A DNA stretch of 64,000 bases from Alkalispirochaeta sp. (GCA_965601925.1 OZ271854.1:2560001-2624000); one strand, 5' to 3'. Positions 1,744 to 27,917 are shown, counted from the first letter of the stretch. Program-made: numbers and translations. The notes: generated by a model from the sequence alone, not told the origin.

Positions 1744-4956
<3,213 letters not shown>

Positions 4957-6847: not shown

Positions 6848-6962
6848 AGGCCGTCCTTTCAGCTCCGTAAGCCGGAAGAAAGCTCCCGGAAACGCACGGA
6901 GTCGTAAATCGGCGGTCTCGACGAATTGCGGGACACCGCTTCTCTGTCCTATTCTTGTGGCT

Positions 6963-11870: not shown

Positions 11871-13148
11871 CTACGGACAGCCCAGAGCGGCATCCTCTAC
11901 ACCGTAGAAACTGCGCGCTATGTACCACAGCTTCTTTTCCAAGTTGGTGTAGGAGAAGTATTTCAGGGCGAGATCGTAGTTCACCTCGACCATCTTCTCC
12001 GCGAGGCTCGGGTTATCCAGTACCTCGACGGTGCGCCGGATCGTCTCGTTCGAGACGAAATCGTCCATCTCGACGACACGGAACCCGAGCGGTTTGATGT
12101 CGTGGGAGTAAATCGAATAGTTGTTGACGACGATCGGTTTACGGAAATAGACCGCCTCCAGAAAGGCGTTCCCGAACCCCTCGAAGATCGACGGATACGT
12201 AACGAGATCGGCGTGGGGGTACACATCCTGCAGACTATATATCTTGCGTCCGTCGGAGGTCGTATCGCGTCGATCACCGATAACATCGTCGACGAAGATC
12301 GCTCGGATTCCCAACAACTCGGCGTATTCTTTTACTCGCGTCTGATATTCGTACCCCTCGTCTCCTGAGGCGTGCGAGATTACCAGCGCCGCCTTGCGAC
12401 CCAATCGAGCCACCAACTCGATGGCGTGTTCGATACCCTTCCGCTGGACGACGCGCGTCGGTTGTAAAATGAACAGTTCGTCGTCCGCGACACCTAACGC
12501 CCGGCGTACATCTTCGTTGTATTCGTCCAGCCCCGGGGCCGGCGTCTCGAAGTCCATCACGTTGGGAATGAGCGTGGAGCTGATACCGGTGCGCAGCGCG
12601 AGTTGGTTTTGTCCCGACGTGTTGATAACGACGTGGTGAACGTTGGGCAAGTGCGGTGGGAAGCAACTGTTGAGATAGTCCCACACGCAGTTGACCAGAA
12701 ACCGTTTACGCTCCCAAAAAAAATCGTGGTGGTGAGCGATCGTGTGAGTACCCGTCTCGGCGATGAACTCGGTAATCGCCATTCCCAGCGGTACGTTGAG
12801 CGGAATCGTAACTGCGTTTTCGGGGACGAGAATATCGATGTTGAATCGTTCGGCGAACTCGTACAGCGACGCCTTTATCTTTTCGCGGTGGTCGTGCAAC
12901 GTATGGGTGAGCTCTGCGGGGCGTACGGTGTTGGAGAAGCACGCCCGATAGGTGGAGCGGACATTCGGCTCTTGGAAATGAAAGTACGGCGCAAGCATAC
13001 TGTTGTCTTCCGGCGTATCCAGCTCACCGCCCAGGTAATAACAACTGCACCCGTTTCGCTCGAAGATGTCGGCCCACTTTTTGGTTTCAAGCGAGACCCC
13101 GTCGGTTCCGGCGATCCTGAATGAGACAAAGCCGATACGTTTATTCAT
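11871..13148 (-). CDS. GT4 glycosyltransferase, mannosylglucosylglycerate synthase (MggS)-like
   Basis: GTDGVSLETKKW, HHHDFFWER, QPTRVVQRKGIE and YPSIFEGFGNA motifs. Confidence 0.8.
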   Translation of the reverse strand: MNKRIGFVSFRIAGTDGVSLETKKWADIFERNGCSCYYLGGELDTPEDNSMLAPYFHFQEPNVRSTYRACFSNTVRPAELTHTLHDHREKIKASLYEFAERFNIDILVPENAVTIPLNVPLGMAITEFIAETGTHTIAHHHDFFWERKRFLVNCVWDYLNSCFPPHLPNVHHVVINTSGQNQLALRTGISSTLIPNVMDFETPAPGLDEYNEDVRRALGVADDELFILQPTRVVQRKGIEHAIELVARLGRKAALVISHASGDEGYEYQTRVKEYAELLGIRAIFVDDVIGDRRDTTSDGRKIYSLQDVYPHADLVTYPSIFEGFGNAFLEAVYFRKPIVVNNYSIYSHDIKPLGFRVVEMDDFVSNETIRRTVEVLDNPSLAEKMVEVNYDLALKYFSYTNLEKKLWYIARSFYGVEDAALGCP

Positions 13149-13220
13149 GTAGGAAAGTGTAGGATGGGATCGGTATCCGTGCAACCTTGGGTATCCTCCG
13201 CGTCCCGCCTAAGAATCTAT

Positions 13221-13946
13221 CTAATGAAACTCGCTATACCGCACACCGTCCTGATCGATCTCCCGCAGTAGCGCGAGCTCCTCCTGCGCGGGCGGCGACA
13301 GTTCCGCGCAATCGGCCGTCTCTGCGATGGGAAAGGCGGTGTTGCGGCGTATCTCGTCGCGATTGGAGTAGGGAAACCACCCCGCCAGACGCAGCTCGCC
13401 GTCCTCTACGCGCAACAGCCCCAACGGGGAGACGACCTCGCGGACATTACCGGCCGCGGTGACGAAGTCGCACCGGTCTGGAAAGCTGCGCCGGTCGTGG
13501 CGCGTACGCCATACGATGGTACGGCGGGCGGTGGGGACGATTGCGGCGCTCCCCGCACCTCCCGGGAGCTTGACCTTGGGTGCATCGAAGCGTCCGATAA
13601 CGCTGTTGTTTATGTTCCCTAACCGATCGATCTGCACGCCCCCCAAAAACGCGACGTCCAGCCGCCCGCGCGCCGAGAGGTCGAAGATATCGACGAGGGA
13701 AAAGAACGATTCGCTTCCTTCGAGAAAACGCGGGGAGCATGTTGAGCTGTCCAGCCGGGTGGGGTCGATGTTTACCCCGCCGGCGATGTTGAGATACAGA
13801 AGCGATCGGTTATGCATGCGCCGCGCCAGTGCGATAGCGACCGCCGGCAGAGGACTTGCAAGGCCGTGAAAGACGGTCTGCGCACCCTTGAGAAGCCGCG
13901 CCATCGTCACCGCCATAGCGTCACCCACAGTTGTTGTATCGATCAT
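13221..13946 (-). CDS. CoA-transferase-fold beta subunit (GctB/AibB-like)
   Basis: GLASPLP, FLGGVQIDRLGNIN and KLPGGAG motifs; overlaps the alpha gene. Confidence 0.8.
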   Translation of the reverse strand: MIDTTTVGDAMAVTMARLLKGAQTVFHGLASPLPAVAIALARRMHNRSLLYLNIAGGVNIDPTRLDSSTCSPRFLEGSESFFSLVDIFDLSARGRLDVAFLGGVQIDRLGNINNSVIGRFDAPKVKLPGGAGSAAIVPTARRTIVWRTRHDRRSFPDRCDFVTAAGNVREVVSPLGLLRVEDGELRLAGWFPYSNRDEIRRNTAFPIAETADCAELSPPAQEELALLREIDQDGVRYSEFH

Positions 13947-14752
13947 TGTTCGCCATCCAAGAGACGGGCCAACGACTCCTCGTCGGCCGCCTCGATCAAA
14001 CTCGTTACGCCCTCCTCGTCGATCTCATACTCGCCGTAACAGCTCCCCGGCGCCGCGCCGCGTGGGGCGTGTACTACGGCATTGACCAGTACCGACGGGA
14101 TATCCACGTGATCCACGGGGACGGGAAGATCCGCCGTCTCGACGATATGTTCCGCGGTCAGCACTACCGTCCGCGCCGCGCGGGCCATAATGAGATCCTC
14201 GTTCTTTGAGCCCACGATGACGCCGTTTCCGGTCGTGTCGGCGTACTGGACGTGCATGACGGCCATGTCTGGAACGATGGCGGGTATCACTACGACGTGC
14301 TCCGTCTCGTCGTACGGATCGGCGATACGGCGGAACGATCGCGCCTCCACCAGATCGCTTCCGTCCAATCCGCGTACCGGAAGAAATCCCAGACCGTAGG
14401 ACGCCGCTCGCAGAGCGGCGATCACCGTATAGCAGGCGTGTTCCCGTGCCTTCACCGCGCCGGACTCTACCGCTCTTCGGTAGTGTCGAGCGAGGCCGAA
14501 GCGAGACTCGTATCCCACGAATCCCGCCGACACGTCGGTCACCATTCCCGCGAGGCACAATAGATCGATATCCCACGCTCCGGCGGTCTTGACGATATGG
14601 AGTTTAAGGTCGCCCCGGCGATGGCGCGCCAACGCTCTGATGAAGGAGTGGGGTACACGATGGAGGCTATTGCCGCCGACGGCGAGGGTCCTTGATCCCG
14701 GCTCGAGAAGTGCCGCGGCGCTACGCATGGAAGTGACTCGTGACGACGTCAT
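13943..14752 (-). CDS. CoA-transferase-fold alpha subunit (GctA-like)
   Basis: GGNSLHRVP, ALRAASYGLGFLP, HVQYADTTGN and GAAPGSCYGEY motifs. Confidence 0.85.
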   Translation of the reverse strand: MTSSRVTSMRSAAALLEPGSRTLAVGGNSLHRVPHSFIRALARHRRGDLKLHIVKTAGAWDIDLLCLAGMVTDVSAGFVGYESRFGLARHYRRAVESGAVKAREHACYTVIAALRAASYGLGFLPVRGLDGSDLVEARSFRRIADPYDETEHVVVIPAIVPDMAVMHVQYADTTGNGVIVGSKNEDLIMARAARTVVLTAEHIVETADLPVPVDHVDIPSVLVNAVVHAPRGAAPGSCYGEYEIDEEGVTSLIEAADEESLARLLDGEQ

Positions 14753-14758
14753 GGACGC

Positions 14759-14767
14759 ATTATACCA
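14759..14767 (-). promoter_or_regulatory. Extended -10 promoter (TGGTATAAT), leaderless CoA-transferase-fold operon
   Basis: TG-G-TATAAT ends 6 nt before the ATG at 14752. Confidence 0.7.
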
Positions 14768-14858
14768 CTATTTCGGAAATATATAGTCTTAAACGTGCAT
14801 GTTTTTCGCCATTAACAAGCCGCAAAAGATGATGAATGTGGTTTTGTGTGTTTTTTTG

Positions 14859-14887
14859 TTGACATCAGGTATAACCGGACCTACAAT
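14859..14887 (+). promoter_or_regulatory. sigma70 promoter of the BMC operon
   Basis: TTGACA(14859)-17 nt-TACAAT(14882); GGAGG RBS before 14923. Confidence 0.8.
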
Positions 14888-14922
14888 CACATGCAACGCA
14901 CGTTGGAGGTGCCGGAGGACGC

Positions 14923-15633
14923 ATGGTAGAGCTTTTGACGTACGCCTACTTGGACCGGTTGCAACCGCAATTTACCGCATTCGTCGCGACGATCGCCAAG
15001 GGGTACCTACCCCTTTCGGGGCAGGCGAGCCTTTGGGTCGAGATCCGCCCCGGCATGGATATCAACCGTCTGACCGACATCGCCCTCAAATCCAATGATG
15101 TGCAGCCCGGTATCATGTATGTGGAGCGCGCCGCGGGTGTGCTTGAGTTCCACAGCTACGACCAAGGCGCGGTCACCGAGGCGGGACACGCAATCCTCGC
15201 ATCCCTCGGCATGACGGTCGAAGATCGTCACAAGCCGGAGCTGGTTGGGTTGGAGACGGTGAAGAACGTCACGGACTTTCAGTGTCAGCTTATCAACCGT
15301 ATGCGTCACGGCAACATGATCCTGCCGGGCGAGACGCTGTTGACTATCGAGACGCAGCCGGCTTCCTACGCCGCATTGGCAGCCAACGAGGCGGAGAAGG
15401 CGGCGCGTATCAATATTCTCGAGGTGCGCGCAATCGGCGCCTTCGGGCGTGTCTATATCGGCGGTGAGGAGGGTGAAGTCCTGGCCGCCAAAGATGCGGC
15501 CGAACGCGCCGTCGGCGATATTGCCGGTCAAGGGCGCCTAAAGGAGATCACGAACCATTGGGTAATGGCGGGTAGAGACGATTCAACGGACGGCAAAGGA
15601 GACGCAAGGATATGGCGGATGCACTGGGGATGA
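14923..15633 (+). CDS. BMC shell protein, permuted tandem-domain BMC-T (CcmP/CsoS1D-like, double-stacking class)
   Basis: [40 protein letters not shown] and [10 protein letters not shown] motifs. Confidence 0.92.
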
Positions 15634-15911
15634 TCGAAGCGCAAGGATTTGTCGGCATGGTTGAGGCGGCCGACGCGATGGTCAAAGCCGCTAAGGTGGA
15701 GCTTGTCGGATACGAGAAGACCGGGGGCGGATACGTGACGGCGATCGTGCGCGGAGATGTCGCGGCGGTAAAGGCCGCCACCGAAGCGGGAGCCAAAAGC
15801 GCCGAGCGCGTCGGACGACTGGTGAGCGTTCACGTCATTCCGCGGCCTCACGAGAACGTCGATACGGCGCTCCCTCTGGGGCGTCAGGAACGCGGAAAAG
15901 GCGAGAAGTAA
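15612..15911 (+). CDS. BMC-H hexamer shell protein (PduA/EutM/CcmK family)
   Basis: ALGMIE...[22 protein letters not shown] and HVIPRPH motifs; AAGGA RBS. Confidence 0.97.
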
Positions 15912-15923
15912 GGAGCGTGGACG

Positions 15924-16211
15924 GTGAATCTGGCCCGAGTCGTCGGTACGGTGGTTGCTACGCAAAAGGAACCATCGATGGTCGGGAGTACGTTTCTCGT
16001 CTTGGAGCGCTTGGCTCACGACCTGCAATCTGCCGGCGAGTTCGTCGTTGCCGTTGACGCCGTCGGCGCGGGGGAGTCTGAGGTCGTCCTATACGCCACG
16101 GGTTCGTCGGCGCGGCAAACCGCGGTGACGCGTGATCGACCGGCGGACGCGGTCGTGATGGCGATCGTCGACTCGTTTTCCATCGGCGACCGTACGGTGT
16201 TTAGGAAGTAG
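15924..16211 (+). CDS. BMC-P pentamer vertex protein (EutN/CcmL family)
   Basis: MNLARVVGTVVATQK, AVDAVGAG, GSSAR and DAVVMAIVD motifs. Confidence 0.95.
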   Translation: MNLARVVGTVVATQKEPSMVGSTFLVLERLAHDLQSAGEFVVAVDAVGAGESEVVLYATGSSARQTAVTRDRPADAVVMAIVDSFSIGDRTVFRK

Positions 16212-16221
16212 CGGGGAGAGC

Positions 16222-17685
16222 ATGCTCTTACACGAACGCCATCTTGAACAAATCGTCGAACGGGTCGTCTCTCGCCTGACCGAAGAGGGAGTCGGAAGGT
16301 CCGCCGGACGCGTCGTCGCGAATCGAACGCATGAGGGCGCTTCGTTGCGTGATGTGCCGCATCTCGGCGTCTTTCGTGATATTGAGTCAGCCGTTGCCGC
16401 GGCGCAATCCGCCTCGCGAGAACTCTCTCGGCTACCCCTCGCTCGCCGGGATGAGATCGTCGGCGCGATGCGGCGTACCGCTCTGGATCACCTCGAGCTC
16501 CTCGCCGGGACGGCGCGGGAAGAGACCGGTATGGGTCGCGTCGAAGATAAGGTCGAGAAGAACCGCCTCGTCGCCGAGAAGACGCCGGGTGTCGAGGCGT
16601 TGGCTACCGCCGCGACGACCGGCGATCTCGGGATCACCCTCGATGCGCGCGCTCCGTACGGAGTGATCGGCGCCATCATTCCCAGCACCAATCCGACCGA
16701 GACGGTGATCAACAACGGTATCGGAATGTTCGCCGCCGGGAACGCCGTCGTCTTTAACCCGCATCCCGCCGCGGCGCGGTGCTCTTTGGCGATCATGAGT
16801 ATGCTCAATCGCGCCATCGCCGAGGGCGGCGGGCCGGAGCACTCCTTCGTCGCCGTAGAGGAACCGACGATCGATACTGCCACGGCGATTATGCGCGACC
16901 GGGACGTTCCCTTCTTGGCGGTCACCGGATCCGAGGGCGTCGTTGCCGCGGCCATGCAGAGCGGCAAGAAGGTCGTGGCGGCGGGGCCGGGCAATCCGCC
17001 GGCGGTCGTGGACGAGAGCGCCGACATCTCGAAGGCCGCCCGCGATATTCTGGCCGGTGGCTCCCTCGACAATAACATCATTTGCATCGCCGAGAAGGTC
17101 ACCGTCGTCGTCGAGGCGGTCGCCCGGCAGCTGGTAGAGGAGATGGGGAGGGCCGGTGCGTACTGCGCCTCGGCCAACCAAATTCGGCAGCTGCAGAATG
17201 TGTTGTTCGCCCGCGAGCCCGAGCCCGGGCGTCACACGCCGGTACGTCGCGAGTTCGTCGGGCGCGACGCGCGCGTGCTTTTGGAGGCGATCGGTACGCG
17301 CGTCGACGGCGATCCGCGGCTGATCTTGTGTGAGGTCTCACCGGATCACCCTTTTGCATGGACGGAGATGTTGATGCCGGTGATGCCCATCGTGCGGGTG
17401 CGCGACGTCGGCGAGGCGATAGACTACGCGGTCGCGGTTGAGGGTGGGAATCGACACACCGCGAGTATGCATTCCCGTAATATCGACGTCCTCACTGAAA
17501 TGGGGCGACGAATCGGCTGTTCGGTCTATGTGAAAAACGGCCCCAACTACGCCGGCTTGGGCTTAGGCGGCGAAGGAATCACCTCCTTCACCATCGCCTC
17601 TCGCACCGGCGACGGCCTCACCACCGCTCGGACCTTCTCCCGCGCCCAGCGCTGCGCCCTGGTCGGAAACTACGGCATCGTATGA
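16222..17685 (+). CDS. CoA-acylating aldehyde dehydrogenase (EutE/PduP family) with N-terminal encapsulation peptide
   Basis: PSTNP, FNPHP, AGPGNPP, catalytic Cys in DNNIICIAEK, EMLMP and RHTASMHS motifs; N-terminal LEQIVERVVSRL amphipathic helix. Confidence 0.95.
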   Translation: MLLHERHLEQIVERVVSRLTEEGVGRSAGRVVANRTHEGASLRDVPHLGVFRDIESAVAAAQSASRELSRLPLARRDEIVGAMRRTALDHLELLAGTAREETGMGRVEDKVEKNRLVAEKTPGVEALATAATTGDLGITLDARAPYGVIGAIIPSTNPTETVINNGIGMFAAGNAVVFNPHPAAARCSLAIMSMLNRAIAEGGGPEHSFVAVEEPTIDTATAIMRDRDVPFLAVTGSEGVVAAAMQSGKKVVAAGPGNPPAVVDESADISKAARDILAGGSLDNNIICIAEKVTVVVEAVARQLVEEMGRAGAYCASANQIRQLQNVLFAREPEPGRHTPVRREFVGRDARVLLEAIGTRVDGDPRLILCEVSPDHPFAWTEMLMPVMPIVRVRDVGEAIDYAVAVEGGNRHTASMHSRNIDVLTEMGRRIGCSVYVKNGPNYAGLGLGGEGITSFTIASRTGDGLTTARTFSRAQRCALVGNYGIV

Positions 17686-17692
17686 GGCGCAT

Positions 17693-18274
17693 ATGGCGTA
17701 TCGACTGACCATCGTACCGACGCCCGAGACGTTCGGCGCTCTGGAGTTGACCGGCATCGCCCGTGGATACGCGGTGGTAGATCGGATGCTCAAAAAGGCG
17801 CCAGTACGCCTCTTGGACGCCCGCGCATACTGTCCCGGAAAGTTTTTGATCGCAATATCCGGCGACGTCGCCTCCGTAGAAGAGGCGCTGGGGACCGGTA
17901 GTCGCCACGCCGGCGAGGCGCTCTTCGGTACCCTATGTGTCGCAAACATCAACCCGGGAGTCATTGCAGCGATCAACCGCGAGGCTGCGTGTGAGGTCGA
18001 CGACACGCTCGGTGTTGTGGAGAGTTTTTCCGCGGTATCGATCATCGACGCCGCCGACGGTGCGGTCAAAGAGGCGGACGTCGCGATTCACAGCATCAGT
18101 CTGCTGCAGGGGCTCGGCGGCAAGGCGTTTGCGCTGTTTGCCGGAGAGCTTTCGGAGGTTACCGCGGCGATCGAGGCGGCGCGGCGGCGCATACCCGGCG
18201 ATATGCTCGTGGAGGCTCAGATAATCCCCGAGATTTCGCCGGACGTCGCGCGGTTTCTACCGGGGAGGGAGTGA
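17693..18274 (+). CDS. BMC-T shell protein, PduT-like
   Basis: Two BMC domains: GALELTGIARG...CPGKF and LGVVESFS...IDAADGAVK...GLGGK. Confidence 0.92.
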   Translation: MAYRLTIVPTPETFGALELTGIARGYAVVDRMLKKAPVRLLDARAYCPGKFLIAISGDVASVEEALGTGSRHAGEALFGTLCVANINPGVIAAINREAACEVDDTLGVVESFSAVSIIDAADGAVKEADVAIHSISLLQGLGGKAFALFAGELSEVTAAIEAARRRIPGDMLVEAQIIPEISPDVARFLPGRE

Positions 18275-18275
18275 C

Positions 18276-18545
18276 GTGTTTTTGGGACGGGCGATGGGTG
18301 TCGTTGAGGTTACAGTTGCGTGCGACGGCCTATCGGGGGTGCCGTTGTTGTGGGTGCAGCCAGAACGATCCGACGGCGCGCCGGCCGGCTCCGCAATCGT
18401 GGTCGCCGATTCGACCTACCGTGCCGGTCCGGGAGATCGCGTGTATATCGTCGACGGGCGGGAGGCGACCTTTCCGCTTCCCTCGCCGTTTGTCCCCGTC
18501 GACGCGACGATCGTCGGAATCGTCGACGAAGTGGATTGCCCATGA
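18276..18545 (+). CDS. BMC-P pentamer vertex protein 2
   Basis: MFLGRAMG, VVAD...AGPGDRV and PVDATIVGIVD motifs. Confidence 0.88.
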   Translation: MFLGRAMGVVEVTVACDGLSGVPLLWVQPERSDGAPAGSAIVVADSTYRAGPGDRVYIVDGREATFPLPSPFVPVDATIVGIVDEVDCP

Positions 18546-18817
18546 GATTGGGAGTCGTGCGCGGAACGGTTACCGCGACCGTAAAGCATCCCCATTACGA
18601 CGGTCGGCGGCTCTTGGTGGTCGCGCTGTGCGACCCTGCGGGGAACGCCGCCGGTAAAGAGACTGTGGCCGTCGATACGGTCGAGGCGGGAGTCGGGGAC
18701 CGCGTCTTGGTCCTGAAGGAGGGCAACTCGGCGCGGGCCGTGTTGGGATTGGATAAGCCCGCAGTGCAGGAGATGATTGTGGCGATCGTCGATTATGTGG
18801 AAGTAAGAGGAGCGTAG
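18542..18817 (+). CDS. BMC-P pentamer vertex protein 3
   Basis: ATG 18542 overlaps the previous stop; MRLGVVRGTVTATVKH, AVDTVEAGVGDRV and EGNSAR motifs. Confidence 0.92.
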   Translation: MRLGVVRGTVTATVKHPHYDGRRLLVVALCDPAGNAAGKETVAVDTVEAGVGDRVLVLKEGNSARAVLGLDKPAVQEMIVAIVDYVEVRGA

Positions 18818-18819
18818 CG

Positions 18820-19704
18820 ATGTTTCCTACCGAGTTGGAGGCGCGCAAGGACATTGCCCACTACAGTCGCAAGGTGCACGCCCACGGTTTGGTATCGGCC
18901 ACGGACGGTAACCTTTCCGTGCGTCTCGACGACGAACACGTTTTAATTACTCCATCGAGTATTCGCAAAGAGGATATGACGGTCGAAGCGCCGGTTATCG
19001 TGACGATGGCGGGAGAGTTGGCGTGGGGAGAACGGCGTCCATCGACGGAGGTGAAGGTGCATCTCGAAGCGTATCGCCGCCGAAGGGATATCAAAGCGGT
19101 GATTCACGCCCATCCGCCGAAGGCGATCGCCTTTACCATCGCCGGCGCCTCGCTGGATACGTGCGTGCTCCCAGAGGTGGTGGTGACTCTCGGCGACGTC
19201 CCGATAGCGCCGTACGCGACGCCCAGCACCGACGACCTCCCCGCATCCATGAGCGATCTCATTTGCAATAGCGACGTCGTCATGCTTGCGCGCCACGGAA
19301 GTGTTACGGTGGGACCGACCCTTGCCGACGCATTCAAAAAGTTGGAAAAGCTGGAGCATAACGCGGAGATTCTGATATACGCCCGAGTTCTGGGCGGTGC
19401 GACGCCCTTCTCAACGGAGCAGTTGGAAGAGCTTCAGAATTTGCGAACCTTCTACGGCGTCACGACGACGGTCAATGCATGTTCCCGCAGGACGAATGGA
19501 GAGTCGGTGGCGGCGCCGTGCCGGAAGTACGCGGTGGAGTCCGAGATCCATGCGCCTACATATCGGTCCGATCGTGACGTCTCGACGCCGACCCACGGAT
19601 CGGGCGGCGCACCGATCGGCGTTCAGAGAGATCCCGGTGCGACCGATGTCGAGGTAGACGCCCTGATAGATGAGATCGTCGCGCGCGTGCGTGCTCGACT
19701 CTGA
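18820..19704 (+). CDS. Class II (FucA/Ald2-type, metal-dependent) aldolase with C-terminal encapsulation peptide
   Basis: DGNLSVR, ITPS, PSTEVKVH, HAHPP and RHG motifs; long linker then VDALIDEIVARVRARL. Confidence 0.93.
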   Translation: MFPTELEARKDIAHYSRKVHAHGLVSATDGNLSVRLDDEHVLITPSSIRKEDMTVEAPVIVTMAGELAWGERRPSTEVKVHLEAYRRRRDIKAVIHAHPPKAIAFTIAGASLDTCVLPEVVVTLGDVPIAPYATPSTDDLPASMSDLICNSDVVMLARHGSVTVGPTLADAFKKLEKLEHNAEILIYARVLGGATPFSTEQLEELQNLRTFYGVTTTVNACSRRTNGESVAAPCRKYAVESEIHAPTYRSDRDVSTPTHGSGGAPIGVQRDPGATDVEVDALIDEIVARVRARL

Positions 19705-19736
19705 GATAACGTCCAAGAACGATAAGGAGGAACGTC

Positions 19737-20939
19737 GTGGCGTATAAGACCCTCAACGAACGGACAGCGATCGATTATGTGAGTAAAAAAACGCACCCCT
19801 TCTCCGATACCTCGGCGCTGGCGTGTCGTGAAATAGGCGACGGGAATCTCAACATGGTCTTTCGTGTGTGGGATACCGGTGATTCGCATAAGAGCGTGAT
19901 AATCAAACAGTCGCTCCCCCACGCCCGCATAGACGAGAGTATCGTGGCACCCCTGGATCGGGCGCGTATCGAGAGTGAAATGTTGGTGCTCCACGATCGA
20001 CACTGTCCGGGGCTCGCGCCCAAGATTCACGATTACGACCGCGAGATGTACGCGATCGTCATGGAGGATCTCTCGGATCACGTCGTGCTTCGCAAAGGGT
20101 TGATCAAGGGCGTTGTCTACCCGCGCCTGGCCGATCACATGGGGGAGTTTCTCGCTCGTTCGCTTTTTCTGACATCCGATCTGGGCATGGACCCGCAGGA
20201 AAAGAAGGAGTTACAAAAGCAGTTCATTAATCCAGCGCTGTGCAAAATCACTGAGGATCTCGTCTTCAGCGAGCCGTACTTCGACGCCCCGAACAACAAG
20301 ATCGACCCGGAGATTCGCGAGCGCGTCGAAGAGAATTGGAGCGACGGCGCGCTCAAACGGGAGGTCGCCGTCCTCAAGGAGTCGTTCATGACCCACGCTC
20401 AGGCGCTCATTCACGGAGATCTTCACACCGGGAGTGTTTTCGTCACTACCGAGAGCACCAAGGCGTTCGACCCCGAATTCGGCTTCTTCGGTCCCATGGG
20501 ATTCGATATCGGCGCGATTCTGGGCAACCTCATTTTGAATCACGCGAGCCACATCTGGCACACCGCCGACGAGGCGCAGCGCGCCTCGTACCGCGAGTAT
20601 CTTCTGACCACGTTCAAAGGTATTTGGGAGACCTTCTCGCGCCTCTTTCGAGCGTTGTGGCGCGAGAAGGTGACGACGCCTATGGAGAGTAATCCGCTCT
20701 ATATGGAGAGCTACATGAAACGGCTCTTTGCCGACGCCATCGGCTTCGCGGGGTGTAAGATGACGCGGCGCATCGTCGGTCTTGCTCAAGTTGAAGATAT
20801 CCGGTCCATCGAGGACGCCATGGTGCGTGAGGCGGCGCAGGTCACCGCGCTGAATACGGCGCGGGATTTCATCATGAAGCGGCGGGAGTATCGTTCGATC
20901 GACGAGGTTGTAGAGACAGTGCGCGCCCATCAAGTGTAG
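19737..20939 (+). CDS. mtnK: S-methyl-5-thioribose (5-deoxyribose) kinase
   Basis: EIGDGNLNMVF, KQSLP, NPALCKITEDLVF, LIHGDLHTGS, DPEF and RRIVGLA motifs; AAGGAGG RBS. Confidence 0.93.
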   Translation: MAYKTLNERTAIDYVSKKTHPFSDTSALACREIGDGNLNMVFRVWDTGDSHKSVIIKQSLPHARIDESIVAPLDRARIESEMLVLHDRHCPGLAPKIHDYDREMYAIVMEDLSDHVVLRKGLIKGVVYPRLADHMGEFLARSLFLTSDLGMDPQEKKELQKQFINPALCKITEDLVFSEPYFDAPNNKIDPEIRERVEENWSDGALKREVAVLKESFMTHAQALIHGDLHTGSVFVTTESTKAFDPEFGFFGPMGFDIGAILGNLILNHASHIWHTADEAQRASYREYLLTTFKGIWETFSRLFRALWREKVTTPMESNPLYMESYMKRLFADAIGFAGCKMTRRIVGLAQVEDIRSIEDAMVREAAQVTALNTARDFIMKRREYRSIDEVVETVRAHQV

Positions 20940-20978
20940 CCGGTGTGTTATATTCCCCTACGTAGGAGGATGTGACCG

Positions 20979-21761
20979 ATGCTCGCTGTGGAGAGGCGCC
21001 ATGCTATTTTCGGAATACTTCAGGAGACCGGCAGCGTAACGGTCGTCGAGTTGTCGCGACGGTTCGACGTGAGCGAAGAGACGATCCGACGCGATCTCAC
21101 CAAGATGGAGAGCTCCGGATTGCTGCAAAAGACATACGGCGGCGCGTTTCTCAACAGCGGGATGCACCTGGAAGTTCCCGTGACGATGCGGGAGCACACG
21201 TATGTTGAGGGTAAGAACATCATCGGAACCCTCAGCTCGCAGTTGATACATAACGGCGATACTATTTTTCTCGACGCCAGTACGACCGCGGTTTATATCG
21301 CCGAGAACATCCTCGACAAGAAGAATCTCATCGTGATTACCAATGCGCTAAAAGTCGCCGAAACGTTGGCCCGCGGTCCCGGGATCAAAGTTATCTGCGC
21401 CGGGGGGACGTTGAGATCCCAGTCTCTTACGATGGTCGGCAAGGCCGCGGAGACGGCGATTGCCACCTACTTTGCCGACAAAGCCTTCATCTGTTGTGAC
21501 GGCGTCCATCGTCTGCACGGGGTCACGGACGCCAATGAAAAAGAGGCGGAGATTCGCAAACAGATGATGCGTCAGGCCGAGAGCTCGATCCTGGTGGTCG
21601 ACGCAACCAAGTTCGACAAAACGTCGTTCGTCCATATGGCCGATTTCGGCGCCTTCGACGTGATGGTCACCGACCGCGAGGTATCGTCGGAGTGGAGAAC
21701 GACGTTGGAGGAGCACGATGTCCAGCTCCGATGCGGAGTCGCTCCGAGCGGCGCCGCATGA
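20979..21761 (+). CDS. DeoR/GlpR family transcriptional regulator
   Basis: HTH VSEETIRRDL, TYGGA, IFLDASTT and DATKF motifs. Confidence 0.95.
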   Translation: MLAVERRHAIFGILQETGSVTVVELSRRFDVSEETIRRDLTKMESSGLLQKTYGGAFLNSGMHLEVPVTMREHTYVEGKNIIGTLSSQLIHNGDTIFLDASTTAVYIAENILDKKNLIVITNALKVAETLARGPGIKVICAGGTLRSQSLTMVGKAAETAIATYFADKAFICCDGVHRLHGVTDANEKEAEIRKQMMRQAESSILVVDATKFDKTSFVHMADFGAFDVMVTDREVSSEWRTTLEEHDVQLRCGVAPSGAA

Positions 21762-21967
21762 ACCGTCGATTCGGGGGAGCCGCGTCGTCGTGAACGCTTC
21801 TGGCGACCGAGGCGCGTAAAAAGTCACCACATTCATGTCTTTCTCTCCGATATACGCGCGGCACGGTATCGACGCCCTCTCCGGAATGTGTCGGAAGTGA
21901 CGGCGTTCGATCTATCTCCGTTTTTTCATAGAAAACCACATAAACAGTCATCAAGATAAAAAATCAT

Positions 21968-21996
21968 TTGACATTGCACGATTGTGGGAGCATAAT
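21968..21996 (+). promoter_or_regulatory. sigma70 promoter of the transporter/mtnA operon
   Basis: TTGACA-17 nt-CATAAT. Confidence 0.8.
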
Positions 21997-22081
21997 TCTG
22001 GAAAACCAGCTAAGAAACAACATTAGCTTGGTATAAAACCACAAAATTGGCATATCATATGCCGGGTACAAGGAGGGGAAG

Positions 22082-23149
22082 ATGCAAAGGAGTCTAATTC
22101 TGTTTTTGATTACCGTGCTGGTCGCAGGTACCGGTTTCGTATACGCCGCCGGCCAGGGCGAGTCCGACGAAAACGTGACGAGAATCGAAGGTGCTCCCGC
22201 CCCCTTCGACGGAAGTGCCGGGCGGCAGCTGCATATCGCGCACATCAGCTATTTGGTCGAGGGCGAGTTTATGCAGATGTATCGCGCCGGTCTGGAGGCT
22301 CAGGCACAGGAACTCGGTATGCGCGTTACGGTGCTCGGAAGACAGGGCGACGCGCAGGCGCAGGCCAATTTCGTGAATCAGGCGATCAACCTCGGCGTCG
22401 ACGGCATTGTCATTCAGCACGGGCTCACCGAAACGATGCGGGGCCCCGCCCAGGACGCTTTGGACGCCGGCATTCCCGTGGTCGCGTTCGACGTCGATCT
22501 ACAGAATTCGAATATCCCGCAAGTGGCGCAAAACGACCCGCAACACGGATTGAACGCAATCACTGCGATCGTCGAGGATTTCGGTGGAAACGTCGACATG
22601 GCCTACGTGCGTGTTGCCGGCATTCTGCCCCTCGACAAGCGCGACGGACCGATTCAGGAGATCGTTGCCGCCTATCCGAACGTGAGTATTGTGGCCCAGA
22701 CCGGTACACTCGACTCTCCTATTGCCGTGCGCAATGCCGACCAGGCCCAGGCGGTGCTACGGGCAAACCCGAGTATTCAGGCGTATTTAGCGCCGTACGA
22801 CGAGTTTGCCAAGGGTATCGTTCTTGCTCTGGAGGAGTTGGAGATGACCGACTCGGTGCGGGTGTACAGCATCGATATCTCGACGCAGGACATCGAGATC
22901 ATGACGCAGCCCGGTAGTCCCTGGGTCATGACCTCCGCGGTCAATCCCGCGGAGATGGGGGCCGTGTCGGTGCGCACCCTTGCGCAAGTAATGGCCGGCG
23001 AGGATGTGCCGCGCGATGTTCTGGTGGAGCCCATGATTTTCACCGCCGATATGCTGCGCGAGGCGGGTGTGACGAACATGGAAGAGCTCATGGCGAGTTT
23101 CGCGGCATTTAACGAATCCCCGGCGGCGCGTTCTATTTGGATGCCCTGA
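22082..23149 (+). CDS. Sugar ABC transporter substrate-binding protein (RbsB-like)
   Basis: Signal peptide ending AAGQGE; VDGIVI, GIPVVAFD and DEFAKG motifs; AAGGAGG RBS. Confidence 0.9.
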   Translation: MQRSLILFLITVLVAGTGFVYAAGQGESDENVTRIEGAPAPFDGSAGRQLHIAHISYLVEGEFMQMYRAGLEAQAQELGMRVTVLGRQGDAQAQANFVNQAINLGVDGIVIQHGLTETMRGPAQDALDAGIPVVAFDVDLQNSNIPQVAQNDPQHGLNAITAIVEDFGGNVDMAYVRVAGILPLDKRDGPIQEIVAAYPNVSIVAQTGTLDSPIAVRNADQAQAVLRANPSIQAYLAPYDEFAKGIVLALEELEMTDSVRVYSIDISTQDIEIMTQPGSPWVMTSAVNPAEMGAVSVRTLAQVMAGEDVPRDVLVEPMIFTADMLREAGVTNMEELMASFAAFNESPAARSIWMP

Positions 23150-23267
23150 TAACGAGATCAGATACGATTTTTTCCTCGACGATAGATGCCGCCGTCCCGA
23201 TACGGGGCGACGGCCGAGCCATACTTGCGTATGATCGTGGATACCGATTGCGCGTGCGGAGAGCATT

Positions 23268-24347
23268 ATGCATTATGACGAACGGACGATGACGAATACC
23301 GAAACGATCAAGAGCATCGAGTGGCGTTCAGGAGCACTCTTTCTTCTCGATCAAACGAAGCTGCCTCTATCGGTAGAGGTCGAGGAACAGACGAGCGTCG
23401 AACAGGTATGGGACTCCATCAGGCAGTTGAAGGTACGCGGAGCGCCGGCGATCGGTGTCGCGGGCGCGTACGGTCTGGTCGTCGCGATGCGGGACAAAAC
23501 AAGTCTCGATAGGCCTTCATTTCTCGCGGAACTTCGGCGACAAGCCGCCTATCTGGACTCGTCGCGTCCGACCGCCGTCAACCTTCATTGGGCGTTGACG
23601 CGCTGCGTTCGCGTCGTTGACGCCGTCGAAGGTGGAACGGGCGACGAACTCCTGGCGACGCTCGTCGCCGAGGCGGAAGCGATCCACAAGGAGGATCTGC
23701 TTCTGTGCCGACGCATCGGCGAACGCGGGGAGCATCTCATCCGCGAAGGCGTCGGTATCCTCACCCACTGTAACGCCGGACGGCTCGCGGCCTCCGACTA
23801 CGGGACCGCTACCGCGCCCATGTATCTCGCTCATGAGAAGGGCGTACGGTTTACCGTCTATTCCGACGAGAGTCGGCCGTTGTTGCAGGGCTCGCGACTC
23901 ACCGCGTGGGAGCTGCGGGAGGCCGGAATCGATGTGTATACGATTACCGACAATATGGCCGCCTTTGTAATGCAAAAGGGGTTGATCGACATGGTGATCG
24001 TCGGTACCGATCGCGTGGCGGCCAACGGCGACGTCGCCAATAAAATCGGCACCATGGGCGTGGCGATTCTCGCCAAACACTTCGGTATCCCGTTCTACGT
24101 TGCGAGTCCCGCCTCCACCATCGACCTCAACACGGCTACCGGCGACGATATCGTGATCGAGGAGCGTAGTACGGACGAAGTGACGCACTTCGGCCTTAGA
24201 CGCACCGCTCCCGAAGGTGTCAAGGTACGTAACCCGGCTTTCGACGTGACGCCCGGAGAGTTGGTCACCGCGTTTATCACCGATGCGGGCGTCATCGAAC
24301 CGCCGTACGACGCGAATCTCGCGCGCATGTTCGCGCCGGACGCGTAA
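23268..24347 (+). CDS. mtnA: S-methyl-5-thioribose-1-phosphate isomerase (start may be 23289)
   Basis: LLDQTKLP, VRGAPAIG, SRPTAVNL, LTHCNAG, ESRPLLQGSRLT, NGDVANKIGT and NPAFDVTP motifs. Confidence 0.95.
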   Translation: MHYDERTMTNTETIKSIEWRSGALFLLDQTKLPLSVEVEEQTSVEQVWDSIRQLKVRGAPAIGVAGAYGLVVAMRDKTSLDRPSFLAELRRQAAYLDSSRPTAVNLHWALTRCVRVVDAVEGGTGDELLATLVAEAEAIHKEDLLLCRRIGERGEHLIREGVGILTHCNAGRLAASDYGTATAPMYLAHEKGVRFTVYSDESRPLLQGSRLTAWELREAGIDVYTITDNMAAFVMQKGLIDMVIVGTDRVAANGDVANKIGTMGVAILAKHFGIPFYVASPASTIDLNTATGDDIVIEERSTDEVTHFGLRRTAPEGVKVRNPAFDVTPGELVTAFITDAGVIEPPYDANLARMFAPDA

Positions 24348-24370
24348 CGTCGCGTATCGAGGAGGCGCGT

Positions 24371-25906
24371 GTGGCTCGACCGTCCCCATTGATTGAAGTA
24401 CGAAACATCGGCAAATCCTTCGGTGCGACGCGGGCGCTGGACGATGTTTCGGTGGAGTTCTTTCCCGGCGAGGTCTTGGCGATGGTAGGCGCCAACGGGG
24501 CGGGCAAGTCGACGTTGATAAAGATCATCTGCGGATATCACGTAGACTTCGACGGTGAAATCGTGATCGGGGGTCGGCCGGTACGTTTGGCGACGCCGAA
24601 AGACGCTGCCGACAACGGTGTCGCGACGGTACACCAGATCATCAACCAAGGCGTCGTACAGAGTATGTCGGTGTATGAGAATCTTACGTTGGCCGAGCTG
24701 CTCGCTCCGGGTCAACGTCCCTTCTATGATAGAAATGCGCTTCGCGAGCGCGCGCGAGAGATCGCGCTTTTGATGGGGCTTGAGGTCGATTTGGACGTCG
24801 CGGTGGAGGATTTGAGCCAGTCCGACCGACAACTCATCGCCATCGCTCGCGCCTTGGCGGGAGATCCGAAGCTCCTCATTCTGGACGAGCCGACCAGTTC
24901 ATTATCCGAGAAGGAGTCCGAGCGCCTTTTTGAGATGTTGGAACGGCTCAAGGCGACGGGCGTCTCGATTCTGTACGTCTCGCATCGCCTACACGAAATC
25001 GGGCGTATCGCCGACCGCGTGGTGGTCCTACGAGACGGGACCACCGCGGGAACGCTGACGCGTCCCTTCGACGTCAAGGAGATGGTAACCAGAATGGTCG
25101 GAGAGATTCCCAAGCACCAGCACATGGTACGAAGCAACGGTCGCGACGAGGCGGAGCTCAAGATCGCGTTGCGCGATCTGGTCGTGAGCGAGGGTTCTCC
25201 GCCCGTAAACTTGCGCATCCATCGCGGCGAGATACTCGGCATAACCGGGCTCATCGGAGCGGGGAAAAGCGAGTTGGCCCAGGTGTTGTTCGGGATCAGG
25301 CGGCCCGTTTCCGGCGATATTCTGGTGGATGGACGGCGTATCGCGCCGCGGAGCGTCGCCGAGGCGGTCGCGCGGGGAATCTTCTACGTACCGGAGGATC
25401 GCACCAACAACGCGGTCGTACCTATGTTTACGGTGCGGCAGAATATGACGCTTCCTTTTTTGCGCGTCTTCGACTGGTTGGGAATCATGAAGATCGGCAG
25501 CGAACGCCGGCGGACCCGCGCTATGATCGAGGCGATGGGCATTAAGTGCGACGGCGAAGAGGCTGAAATGGACAGTCTCTCAGGCGGTAATCAACAAAAG
25601 GTCGTCGTGGCGCGGTGGCTTCTGGAGTCCTTCGAACTGGTGATTCTCGACGAGCCCTTTCAGGGCGTCGATGTCCGCTCGCGTCACGATATAGGACGCC
25701 ATCTGAGGGAGCACATCGGCGAACGGGCGGCGATCGTCATCGCGACCGATCTGGACGAGGTTATCGAAGTCGCCGACCGCATCATCGTTATGAACGCCGG
25801 CGCGATTGTCGGAGAGCAGCTCTATGAAAACATCGATCGCGATCAACTTCTCCATTGGGTCTCCCAGGAGGCCCCGCAAGGCGAGCGGGAGGCGCTTGAA
25901 GCATGA
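24371..25906 (+). CDS. Sugar ABC transporter ATP-binding protein with two ABC domains (RbsA-like)
   Basis: GANGAGKST, ILDEPT and LSGGNQQK motifs. Confidence 0.95.
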   Translation: MARPSPLIEVRNIGKSFGATRALDDVSVEFFPGEVLAMVGANGAGKSTLIKIICGYHVDFDGEIVIGGRPVRLATPKDAADNGVATVHQIINQGVVQSMSVYENLTLAELLAPGQRPFYDRNALRERAREIALLMGLEVDLDVAVEDLSQSDRQLIAIARALAGDPKLLILDEPTSSLSEKESERLFEMLERLKATGVSILYVSHRLHEIGRIADRVVVLRDGTTAGTLTRPFDVKEMVTRMVGEIPKHQHMVRSNGRDEAELKIALRDLVVSEGSPPVNLRIHRGEILGITGLIGAGKSELAQVLFGIRRPVSGDILVDGRRIAPRSVAEAVARGIFYVPEDRTNNAVVPMFTVRQNMTLPFLRVFDWLGIMKIGSERRRTRAMIEAMGIKCDGEEAEMDSLSGGNQQKVVVARWLLESFELVILDEPFQGVDVRSRHDIGRHLREHIGERAAIVIATDLDEVIEVADRIIVMNAGAIVGEQLYENIDRDQLLHWVSQEAPQGEREALEA

Positions 25907-26940
25907 GTTCACAAATACATCCAGGGACGGTCGCGGACCGTCGCGCGGTGGACCGCACGGAACGGCTCAAACGGTTTTCCATCCGGTACGGATTTCTCAT
26001 CGTGATGGCGGCGTTGTTCGTGATTTTTGGGATCATACAACCGGTCTTTTGGCGGCCGGGGAACCTCTTTTCGATTCTCCTCGGCGTGACGGTATATGGA
26101 ATTTTAGCCTTGGGAGTGACCTTTCCCCTTGTGATCGACGGACTGGATCTGTCGATCGGCTCGGTCGCGGCGCTGTCGGTGATGATTTCGGCGTATATGA
26201 TGGTCGTTCTGGAGACGAGCGGCCTTGCGGCGATCATTGCGTGCCTAAGCCTGGGCGCGTTTATCGGGTTGATAAACGGTATATTGATCGTCAGGGTCAA
26301 AATACCGGACCTTCTCGCCACGTTGGGTATGATGTTTTTGGTACAGGGTTTGCAGCTCATCCCCTCCGGCGGACGATCGATCGGCCGTGGCGCGGTGCTC
26401 GCCGGCGGCGTGACCGCGCGCGGTGAGTTTGCCGACTACTTTCTCTTTTTGGGGCAGGGTCGCATATTGGGTATCGTACCGACGGCGGTGGCGATTATGC
26501 TCGTGGTTGCCGTCCTCGTATTTGTCGTGCTCTCCCTCACGCGTTGGGGGCGCATCTTTTACGCCATCGGCAGCAACGCCGAGGCGGCGCGGTTGGTCGG
26601 CGCCAAAGTCGATACGTATCGTATCATGGCCTACGTCATCTCCGGTACGATCGCCGCTCTCGGCGGTATCGTGTTGGCTGCGCGGGTGGGGCGGGGTGAT
26701 GTTCAGTCCGGCGGCACGCTCCTGTTGGACGCGGTCGGTTCGGCGCTTATCGGTTTTGCGGTGCTCGGCGTGCGTAAGCCAAACCCATTCGGCACCATCG
26801 TCGGAGCGATTTTCATCGGCATGCTGCTTAATGGGTTGACGATGCTCAACATGCCGTATTTCGTGCAGGACTTCATCAAAGGCGTGGTGTTGGTCGCCGC
26901 ATTGGCCTTCACCTTCGGACTGTCCAAGACCAAGACGTGA
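25903..26940 (+). CDS. Sugar ABC transporter permease (RbsC-like)
   Basis: GLDLSIGS and YAIGSNAEAARLVG motifs; multiple TM helices. Confidence 0.95.
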   Translation: MSSQIHPGTVADRRAVDRTERLKRFSIRYGFLIVMAALFVIFGIIQPVFWRPGNLFSILLGVTVYGILALGVTFPLVIDGLDLSIGSVAALSVMISAYMMVVLETSGLAAIIACLSLGAFIGLINGILIVRVKIPDLLATLGMMFLVQGLQLIPSGGRSIGRGAVLAGGVTARGEFADYFLFLGQGRILGIVPTAVAIMLVVAVLVFVVLSLTRWGRIFYAIGSNAEAARLVGAKVDTYRIMAYVISGTIAALGGIVLAARVGRGDVQSGGTLLLDAVGSALIGFAVLGVRKPNPFGTIVGAIFIGMLLNGLTMLNMPYFVQDFIKGVVLVAALAFTFGLSKTKT

Positions 26941-27343
26941 CCGATCTCCTCGTTCCGGCGAGCGAAGATGTTCGGCGCCGTGGGAATCGGCGCCTCACGA
27001 GTCGATTCAGAGTATCCATCGCTTCGGTCCCCGGTGTGCGCAGGGAAATATCGGTGATCGTTGCGGTATGTTCGCATTGATCGGTATTGATCTCGATGAT
27101 CGTCGCTCCATAGCGCTTCGCCATCGTCGGAAGCATCCCCGCCGGGTACACTTCTCCGATCGTACCGACGACGAGCATGGCATCGGCCGCCCGAGCGGCT
27201 TTTCCTGCGAGCTGCGTCGTCTCAGACGGTATCCCGTCGCCGAAGAAGACGACATCGGGCCGCAACAGCGCTCTCCCTTCGGACCGCGTCGGTGCGCTGT
27301 TTCCGGCCCGGCGGTAGTCGTCGGTCGATACGGATGTTTCCAC
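26909..27343 (-). pseudogene. Truncated Sir2/CobB deacylase (C-terminal half only)
   Basis: LRPDVVFFG, LVVGT-GEVYPA and IIEIN are present; the N-terminal GAGxS, QNxD, HG and Zn-ribbon Cys are absent, with no room upstream. Confidence 0.75.
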
Positions 27344-27354
27344 GATCCTCGCGT

Positions 27355-27900
27355 CTACTTAACCAGTTTCGAGATCTCTTTAAAACGCGCGGTCCCGCTG
27401 ACACGGGTGAGCTCGAAGAGAATCGATTCTACCGAGGTAATCCGCCCCCCCTCGCGTTCGATACGTCGAGCGGCTATCTCGCGATCGTGGCCGTTGCGAC
27501 TCGATGTCGCGTCGAGGACAACGACCGGCTGATATCCGGTCTCCAGGAGGTCGAGCGCCGTCTGGAGTATACATACATGCGCCTCAATACCGGCGAGCAG
27601 TACCGTCTTGCGGCCGAGAGAGGCGAGGCGCGCTCGGAACGTCGTGTCGTCGCAACAACTGAACGACGATTTTATGATCGGCGTTGCGGACTCACCCAAC
27701 GCCTCGGTAATCGACGCCGCGGTGGGCCCGAGTCCCTTTGGATACTGTTCGGTAACCAGAAGCGGCGCCTCCAGAATGCGGGCTCCGCGGATGAGCGTGA
27801 GTATCTTTTCGCGTGTTCTGTCGGCCTCGTCCATATGGACGAGCAGTCGCTCCTGTACGTCGACGATTACGACGGCTGTATTGTCAAGGACGATGCGCAT
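27355..27900 (-). CDS. Isochorismatase-family hydrolase (YcaC/ISOC-like)
   Basis: IVDVQERL, TEQYPKGLG, KSSFSC and GIEAHVC motifs. Confidence 0.9.
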   Translation of the reverse strand: MRIVLDNTAVVIVDVQERLLVHMDEADRTREKILTLIRGARILEAPLLVTEQYPKGLGPTAASITEALGESATPIIKSSFSCCDDTTFRARLASLGRKTVLLAGIEAHVCILQTALDLLETGYQPVVVLDATSSRNGHDREIAARRIEREGGRITSVESILFELTRVSGTARFKEISKLVK

Positions 27901-27905
27901 GTTGT

Positions 27906-27912
27906 TATTATG
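27906..27912. promoter_or_regulatory. Bidirectional overlapping -10 elements
   Basis: TATTAT(+) and CATAAT(-) each end 6 nt from the divergent ATGs at 27918 and 27900. Confidence 0.65.
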
Positions 27913-27917
27913 GCGCA

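Follow-up and report, generated by a model that had tools for sequence, protein, structure and literature searches.

The dihydroxyacetone phosphate (DHAP) shunt has been described in Escherichia coli (MtnK, MtnA, and Ald2) and in Bacillus thuringiensis (Drd), where a kinase, an isomerase, and a class II aldolase are clustered with a DeoR-family gene and the nucleosidase is encoded elsewhere (PMC10986504, PMC12632272). In E. coli, the DeoR-family repressor MtnR governs the shunt (PMC12632272), MtnK and MtnA accept two substrates, and the resulting aldehydes end as 2-methylthioethanol, ethanol, or acetate (PMC10986504). We analyzed a window of 64,000 nt from Alkalispirochaeta sp. (GCA_965601925.1 OZ271854.1:2560001-2624000) in which a locus at positions 13221-26940 combines genes of this kind with a set of bacterial microcompartment (BMC) shell genes. 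We conclude that this locus probably encodes a DHAP shunt for 5-methylthioribose or 5-deoxyribose, with the aldehyde step predicted to occur inside a metabolosome.

As in the described shunts, MtnK and MtnA are clustered here with a class II aldolase and a DeoR-family regulator, and the nucleosidase gene stands apart: MtnN (the methylthioadenosine/S-adenosylhomocysteine nucleosidase) passes its cut-off at G000:C1:2624333-2624992, just past the end of the window and ~40 kb from the locus. Unlike those systems, the locus also has a shell, an acylating aldehyde dehydrogenase (AldDH), an ATP-binding cassette (ABC) importer, and a coenzyme A (CoA)-transferase-fold pair, and its aldolase carries an encapsulation-peptide-like tail and falls in a microcompartment-type clade, not with the DrdA type. 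Universal methionine salvage is marked by MtnB, MtnD, or a RuBisCO-like enolase; in the host genome (5.05 Mb, 96.7% complete) no MtnB passed the cut-off, and neither MtnD, a RuBisCO-like protein, nor a DrdA orthologue was found. With no such route found, the product of MtnA would most simply pass to a class II aldolase.

We compared the locus with catalogued BMC types by their text descriptions. SPU2 and SPU3 likewise have BMC-H, a BMC-P triplet, a CcmP-like BMC-Tdp, BMC-Ts, and an AldDH with an N-terminal peptide, and do not need a phosphotransacylase (PTAC) (Sutter 2021, PMC8217296). SPU3-like loci even share the order Tdp-H-P-AldDH-Ts-P-P-aldolase; our locus differs in having no DeoC (PF01791) or RpiB (PF02502) and instead MtnK, MtnA, and an importer. 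HO type II and SPU5, as described in the same catalogue, resemble it in a single H, three P, Ts, AldDH with N-terminal peptide, PF00596 aldolase, and incomplete core. However, HO has two Tdp from different clades where the window genome has one, and in SPU5 the Ts is linked to PduS and the Tdp is of the CsoS1D type, whereas our locus lacks PduS and its Tdp is nearer CcmP. No substrate module for HO type II or SPU5 is described in the accessible parts of the catalogue. PVMlike loci (Axen 2014; Sutter 2021) share a class II aldolase signature and DeoR; the type has been tied to the PVM aldolase (PMC4207490, PMC8217296), and gut Pvm loci were filed under fucose/rhamnose (Ravcheev 2019, PMC6620236). 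The window locus lacks the PTAC, the excess of H over P genes, and the GRM5-like AldDH of that type. Judged from these descriptions and by the features tested, the locus falls outside SPU, HO, PVMlike, and universal salvage.

The initial annotation had called this a candidate new metabolosome and knew of no BMC type with such a substrate. In the literature we searched, where coverage of subscription papers was incomplete, no BMC with this methylthioribose/5-deoxyribose pathway is described. The accessible supplements of Sutter 2021 (PMC8217296) contain neither the string 'methylthio' nor a PF01008 entry, although their diagrams may still show such loci, and the accessible main texts of Axen 2014 (PMC4207490) and Ravcheev 2019 (PMC6620236) also lack 'methylthio'. 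The shell chassis is close to the catalogued SPU2, SPU3, and HO types, and a Bacillota form described below uses a PVMlike-type shell, so the word new fits the substrate module and not the chassis.

Every gene in the initial annotation was found in its place and intact by profile and sequence checks (Table 1). The plus-strand run Tdp-H-P-AldDH-Ts-P-P-aldolase-mtnK-deoR has intergenic gaps of at most 39 bp, and a 320-bp gap after deoR precedes the binding protein, mtnA, ATPase, and permease genes. The CoA-transferase-fold pair, divergent from Tdp, fills the first 1.5 kb (13221-14752, minus strand) and had gone unmentioned. This is the sole microcompartment locus of the genome and holds its only BMC-H, mtnK, and mtnA. 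Among the genes scanned in the window there is, as annotated, no diol dehydratase, glycyl-radical enzyme, EutBC, DeoC/RpiB, or fucose/rhamnose enzyme. Homologues of DeoC and RpiB and four glycyl-radical-family genes (771-807 aa) do occur in the genome, far from the locus, as does a rhamnose-type cluster; all of these are outside the window. EutB was not found in the genome, at its 96.7% completeness; a genome search for diol dehydratase gave no match, but its control gave no signal either.

Table 1. Features of the Alkalispirochaeta sp. locus, in window coordinates.
Feature	Position	Strand	Match or remark
CoA-transferase-fold beta subunit, non-canonical, Ile54 at catalytic Glu position	13221..13946	-	PF01144
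CoA-transferase-fold alpha subunit, conserved EHAC motif (Cys107)	13943..14752	-	PF01144
Predicted shell-operon promoter	14837..14887	+	TGTGGTTT at 14837 just 5' of TTGACA-17-TACAAT (14859)
BMC-Tdp, CcmP-like stacked trimer	14923..15633	+	NF053796 271 bits, under cut-off 340
BMC-H hexamer	15612..15911	+	PF00936; single tblastn match in genome
BMC-P pentamer 1	15924..16211	+	PF03319
CoA-acylating AldDH, PduP/EutE type, N-terminal encapsulation-peptide-like helix	16222..17685	+	PRK15398 607 bits, cut-off 403
BMC-Ts, PduT-like, YCPGK motif	17693..18274	+	two PF00936 domains; TIGR02526 under cut-off
BMC-P pentamer 2	18276..18545	+	PF03319
BMC-P pentamer 3	18542..18817	+	PF03319
Class II aldolase, C-terminal linker and encapsulation-peptide-like helix; predicted 5-(methylthio/deoxy)ribulose-1-phosphate aldolase	18820..19704	+	PF00596
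MtnK, methylthioribose/5-deoxyribose kinase	19737..20939	+	TIGR01767 500 bits, cut-off 275
DeoR-family regulator	20979..21761	+	PF00455 and PF08220
Predicted importer/mtnA promoter	21933..22043	+	AAACCACA at 21933 and 22036 around TTGACA-17-CATAAT (21968)
Sugar-binding protein, predicted for methylthioribose	22082..23149	+	best match 4RY8
MtnA, methylthioribose-1-phosphate isomerase	23268..24347	+	TIGR00512 437 bits, cut-off 279
Sugar ABC ATPase, two domains	24371..25906	+	PF00005, twice
Sugar ABC permease	25903..26940	+	PF02653

The case for a metabolosome starts from the six shell genes at one locus (one BMC-H, three BMC-P, BMC-Ts, and BMC-Tdp), which are intact and 53-95% conserved in full-length relatives. 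The best structures for Tdp are CcmP (5LSR) and HO-5816 (5V74), with CcmP nearer than CsoS1D. Its frame of 236 aa overlaps BMC-H by 22 bases and compares with 205-208 aa in eight relatives; the extra length reflects either a late stop or a sequence error. The AldDH aligns with structure 4C3S (E 1.5e-122) across the NNIIC and RHTASMH motifs, and its Cys288 and His412, which we take to be the catalytic residues, match the reference motifs. In a tree of 48 rows it clusters with SPU2/SPU3-like enzymes (support 84). The locus thus has two marks of a metabolosome, BMC-H with BMC-P and an acylating AldDH with a predicted encapsulation peptide.

The initial annotation had read encapsulation-peptide-like helices on both the AldDH and the aldolase. 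That of the AldDH, the N-terminal RHLEQIVERVVSRLTEE, has a hydrophobic moment of 0.64. The C-terminal helix of the aldolase, EVDALIDEIVARVRARL, follows a linker of ~55 residues, and its moment is just 0.31, not above that of some control termini. The moment itself proved non-discriminating as a test for encapsulation peptides. For the aldolase, the call is based instead on the conserved pattern of the tail and its co-occurrence with shell genes.

This co-occurrence is seen in the aldolase phylogeny. We built a tree of 102 of 311 collected domains, keeping all rows with mtnK/mtnA or at least 52% identity and thinning the rest by identity; 16 loci, mostly duplicates, had been removed beforehand. 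The window aldolase belongs to a subclade of 20 copies (support 93), to which three genomes contribute two each and in which L117 and L192 are near-identical. The closest aldolases carry the labels Spirochaeta, Alkalispirochaeta, and Spirochaetaceae, and P0042, an aldolase with a tail, is catalogued as Alkalispirochaeta alkalica. Either mtnK or mtnA adjoins 19 of the 20 copies (L107 included), and in two loci, L122 and L123, aldolase and MtnA are fused in a single frame. All 14 shell-linked copies end in a tail of 33-94 residues, with the same helix pattern wherever ends were inspected. None of the six shell-less copies, which are placed at three points within the subclade, has a tail: four are 224-227 aa long and the other two are the MtnA fusions. 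We found mtnK in nine of 41 related genomes, and in eight of these it lies within this aldolase locus; the ninth (L106) has the same importer, mtnA, and mtnK paired with a RuBisCO-like protein. The mtnK of L101 belongs to a different lineage; it is only 39% identical, still over the cut-off, and at another position. No mtnK was found in five further microcompartment genomes tried. A survey of BMC, mtnK, and mtnA synteny therefore showed a coupling conserved across relatives and not a one-off, and the synteny, the fusions, and a promoter motif common to both operons rule out chance as the reason why shell, aldolase, and MtnK/MtnA are adjacent.

Some loci around this subclade have arrangements of their own. 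In L026:753-10801, a pentamer-aldolase-mtnK module is joined to an ethanolamine-type (EUT3/SPU6-like) shell locus, near the catalogue's 'related Spirochaetes' loci. Shell-free mtnA-aldolase pairs occur in L281, where an MTAP-like gene follows, and in L261, with aldolases inside the microcompartment-type clade. Three genomes (G010, G015, and G049) hold two aldolase-clade copies each, and one of them, G010, has a further shell locus that lacks both kinase and importer. In L106 and L107 the importer module lies beside a RuBisCO-like protein, possibly a second exit for ribulose-1-phosphate; L107 is also beside a split transketolase.

By family models, the aldolase scores under all named-family cut-offs, including that of MtnB (78 vs 137 bits), which ruled out an MtnB dehydratase; the halophile ribulose-1-phosphate aldolase model gave 99 bits vs a cut-off of 300. 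Its best structure match is 6BTD (E 9e-24), which we take to be DrdA. A DNA-level search of E. coli genomes with mtnA for an Ald2-type reference returned no match.

MtnK and MtnA pass their equivalog cut-offs, and MtnK has the motifs GDGNLN, HGDLH, and DPEF. The top match of the binding protein, by both sequence and fold, is 4RY8 (34% identity, E 7e-58), titled a 5-methylthioribose transporter binding protein and presumably holding methylthioribose as bound ligand; next come 5ULB (E 3e-33) and matches at 8e-16 or weaker. A PF01547 binding-protein-like gene without an obvious signal peptide is present in L024, L025, L026, L028, L106, L107, and many Bacillota loci, and not in the window locus. 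Each operon has a promoter of the TTGACA-17-TA(C)AAT type, and the motif AAACCACA/TGTGGTTT is common to the two. Of the orthologous promoters, 7 of 9 for the shell operon and 11 of 12 for the importer carry the motif exactly. All three exact AAACCACA sites in the window are inside the two promoters, against 0.53 expected. Across the whole genome 53 sites occur, five of them near TTGACA, two of which are these promoters. No AAACCACA sites at consistent places were found in the Bacillota or sister-clade loci.

The CoA-transferase-fold pair adds a component absent from the described shunts. The best structures for its beta subunit are of AibB type (5MZW/5N03, E 1e-26), with Ile54 aligned to Cys56 of AibB, and its first Glu is at residue 76, so the beta-subunit Glu of class I CoA transferases (cf. 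Glu54 of glutaconate CoA-transferase) is absent; LNIxGG is present in 10 of 10 aligned beta subunits. In the alpha subunit, Cys107 is invariant (9 of 9 aligned) and aligns with a Glu of 6CO6, which we take to be catalytic in IpdA, and with Ala in 6COJ. The closest structural relatives, AibA/AibB and IpdAB, likewise lack the beta-subunit glutamate; the pair differs from them in having Ile, not Cys or Gly, at the beta position and Cys107 where IpdA has Glu. The AibB Cys56 position corresponds to the catalytic Glu site of true CoA transferases (PMC7756340, PMC5380842). We had considered an ordinary CoA transferase replacing PduL and dropped it, because the catalytic Glu is absent and Bacillota loci hold both PduL and the pair.

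With a threshold of E 1e-40, a search of 99 genomes of the order found the alpha subunit in eight, always head-to-head with Tdp. Of 295 relatives of the pair we examined the best 80, short contigs and one doubled contig included; within 10 kb, 63 had shell genes, 48 mtnK or mtnA, 55 an aldolase, and 59 a CoA-disulfide-reductase-like gene. EHAC is present in 79 of these 80 loci, EHAC itself being one of the two search patterns. The pair is missing from 4 of 12 shell-linked loci with a visible upstream end (L026, L107, L117, and L192), so it is not essential. We conclude that the pair is a component of the system, not a canonical transferase, and that (methylthio)acetyl-CoA may be its substrate: Pta and AckA, encoded elsewhere in the genome together with an iron-containing alcohol dehydrogenase, could take acetyl-CoA, so a dedicated acyl-CoA enzyme would better suit the methylthio compound. 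The window locus has no CoA-disulfide reductase; other parts of the genome encode a homologue with 35% identity as well as a sulfhydrylase homologue. The cysteine-bearing pair also has relatives in shell-free loci (L412, L420, L428, L430, L436, L453, L463, and L464), several of which adjoin peptide-type ABC genes or a class II aldolase; they show that the family extends beyond this pathway.

The same substrate module also occurs on a second type of shell. Among the best 80 of 584 mtnK loci, 15 have shell genes, one from a spirochaete and 14 from Bacillota, and the pair is in view in 12 of the 14. The usual Bacillota order is importer-mtnK-mtnA-(deoR)-aldolase-AldDH-several H-PduL-P-reductase-pair, which matches the catalogue's PVMlike description, compared by text. 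These loci share the importer-mtnK-mtnA-deoR module and the pair with the window, but differ in their shell genes (several H, a single P, and no Tdp seen), in carrying PduL and a CoA-disulfide reductase, and in their separate aldolase and AldDH clades. An approximately unbiased test rejected a single clade for the spirochaete and Bacillota aldolase groups (p 0.0003; 37 rows, groups named after viewing a larger tree), and for the aldolase, a single origin of the two organelles is thereby rejected. One locus, L367, is apparently from the strain catalogued as Bacteroides xylanolyticus, a synonymy that we assume; L310 and L313, like L367, come from named strains. In L313:4770-6152 and L314:4694-6076 an O-acetylhomoserine sulfhydrylase-like gene leads the cluster; the L313 protein ends in an encapsulation-peptide-like helix, and the L314 copy is 86% identical. 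Further shell arrangements with the pair are found in L405, L399, L346, L374, and L404, the first four also with mtnK/mtnA; L405, which has PduS, represents a second form from spirochaetes.

These results support the model of the initial annotation (import, cytosolic phosphorylation and isomerization, cleavage in the shell, and capture of the aldehyde) as the best among the readings, with enzyme activity, induction, and encapsulation as its predictions. We favor it because of the fusions, the loss of the tail without a shell, the 4RY8 match, the common motif, and the lack of another exit found for the MtnA product. The ABC system would import a 5-deoxypentose, and the nucleosidase encoded elsewhere may add an internal supply. 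Neither MtnK nor MtnA has a clear encapsulation peptide, and both would act in the cytosol to make the ribulose-1-phosphate, as in the known kinase-isomerase-aldolase chemistry (PMC10986504, PMC12632272). This would enter the shell, probably via the Tdp pore, and be cleaved by the aldolase to DHAP and (methylthio)acetaldehyde or acetaldehyde, which the AldDH would trap as acyl-CoA. The cysteine-bearing pair might then handle (methylthio)acetyl-CoA, the least certain step. DeoR would repress both promoters through the AAACCACA sites until a pathway phosphate accumulates.

Several observations weigh against this model. PduL/PTAC (PF06130) was not found in the genome and no alcohol dehydrogenase is in the locus, so the complete core of PTAC and alcohol dehydrogenase is wanting and cofactor recycling is left without an explanation. 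The aldolase is ~31% identical to the DrdA-type aldolase of L329, lies outside the DrdA-type clade, and is not an orthologue; since class II aldolases are promiscuous (PMC4207490), its substrate is not one that sequence can fix. A sister clade holds six Spirochaetales aldolases, five with shell genes in view and four with the full core in the same order, and none of the six has mtnK/mtnA beside it; the same core order also occurs in SPU3-like loci with RpiB-DeoC. In L027 a tail-bearing aldolase has a pentamer gene next to it, and the genes after it encode an FGGY kinase and a fructose-bisphosphate-type aldolase; no mtnK was found in that genome, which has MTAP and an mtnA-like gene together elsewhere. 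The structural Z score of the binding protein to 4RY8 (23.5) is nearly tied with the next two (22.6 and 21.8), and 34% identity would be insufficient proof of a ligand. The motif count is not a blind test, because the motif was found on the same promoters on which it is counted, and related genomes are not independent samples. Finally, mtnA occurs in 27 of the 41 relatives and, within the genus, in 15 of 16 other genomes; in 7 of 8 examined genus loci, from genomes without this aldolase, it has neither kinase nor aldolase beside it, and it may therefore have another role.

These lone mtnA genes (L470-L477) are 70-76% identical to that of the window; one follows a 31-residue binding-protein remnant and another precedes an aldolase of another lineage, suggesting the decay of an older cluster.

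The strongest of the alternatives, though we consider it unlikely, keeps the architecture and changes the substrate to another 5-substituted pentose (5-deoxy, 5-halo, or 5-alkylthio ribose, or ribose itself, giving glycolaldehyde). The modest identity of the binding protein to 4RY8, and of 25-32% to its Bacillota counterparts, would allow this, and MtnK and MtnA already take two substrates (PMC10986504). Yet both enzymes score over their equivalog cut-offs, the halophile ribulose-1-phosphate aldolase model falls far below its own, and RpiB homologues are encoded elsewhere in the genome.

Less likely still, and in our judgment improbable, is that the locus joins two neighbours, a PVM-like fucose/rhamnose or generic sugar-phosphate microcompartment and an unrelated methylthioribose salvage module. 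The many loci with a shell-AldDH-aldolase core and no mtnK/mtnA, the other kinase of L027, and the lone mtnA genes that persist in relatives fit such a view, but it would not predict aldolase-MtnA fusions, shell-less aldolases that remain beside mtnA, or a motif common to both operons' promoters, and no MtnB, MtnD, or RuBisCO-like salvage route was found in the genome. A rhamnose-type cluster does occur elsewhere in the genome, but it has its own aldolase-like gene; three other PF00596 genes lie outside the locus, two beside rhamnose- and arabinose-type genes as read from sequence. A cytosolic DHAP shunt with a shell that is vestigial or serves other cargo (a distant glycyl-radical enzyme or ethanolamine lyase) would agree with the six relatives that run the aldolase without a shell, the lack of PduL and alcohol dehydrogenase in the locus, the ethanolamine-type shell of L026, and the four glycyl-radical-family genes, but is very improbable given that the tail and the shell genes are retained or lost together, that these genes are intact and conserved, that EutB was not found, and that the glycyl-radical genes are far away.

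The metabolosomal shunt may also extend further, a reading that we put forward tentatively and hold to be less likely than not. The organelle would degrade methylthioribose fully to DHAP, acetyl-CoA, and methanethiol; the Cys107 pair would act as a (methylthio)acetyl-CoA carbon-sulfur lyase of a kind not yet described, and the CoA-disulfide reductase would free methanethiol for O-acetylhomoserine sulfhydrylase. The module would sit on at least two shell chassis, and the class II aldolases that stand as orphans in PVMlike, HO, and SPU-type loci would be DHAP-shunt enzymes for by-products of S-adenosylmethionine (SAM). The last part draws on the sister-clade genomes, where MTAP and an mtnA-like gene occur in six of six (mtnK in two), compared with MTAP in 7 of the 41 relatives.

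Around the locus, the window holds genes of other kinds. A 144-aa sirtuin C-terminal fragment (26909-27343, minus strand) overlaps the permease end and is followed by an isochorismatase-family gene (27355-27918, minus strand); neither turned up next to related loci. A GH13 gene and glycosyltransferase-like genes at 5183-8744 and 11871-13184 are unconserved beside the locus and possibly serve compatible-solute metabolism; one glycosyltransferase-like gene resembles mannosylglucosylglycerate synthase (245 bits, cut-off 640). Pyruvate:ferredoxin oxidoreductase is encoded at 1747-5235 (minus strand), and 42774-56054 is a run of large, apparently secreted proteins, mostly without a Pfam match, one with Ig-like and Y_Y_Y domains. 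In an Rfam scan of the window only a tRNA matched; a tRNA gene lies at 36942-37015 (minus strand).

If the proposed pathway operates in this host, which is likely a free-living spirochaete, by-products of SAM metabolism would be a new substrate class for bacterial microcompartments. The aldehyde carbon that E. coli largely excretes would then be retained as acyl-CoA, and catalogued types of open or assumed function (PVMlike, and possibly those HO and SPU-type loci that have a class II aldolase) would gain a job. The pair would represent a cysteine enzyme with a CoA-transferase fold, as yet uncharacterised, that may connect the route to methanethiol and methionine. The module is present as well in cultured, named Bacillota.

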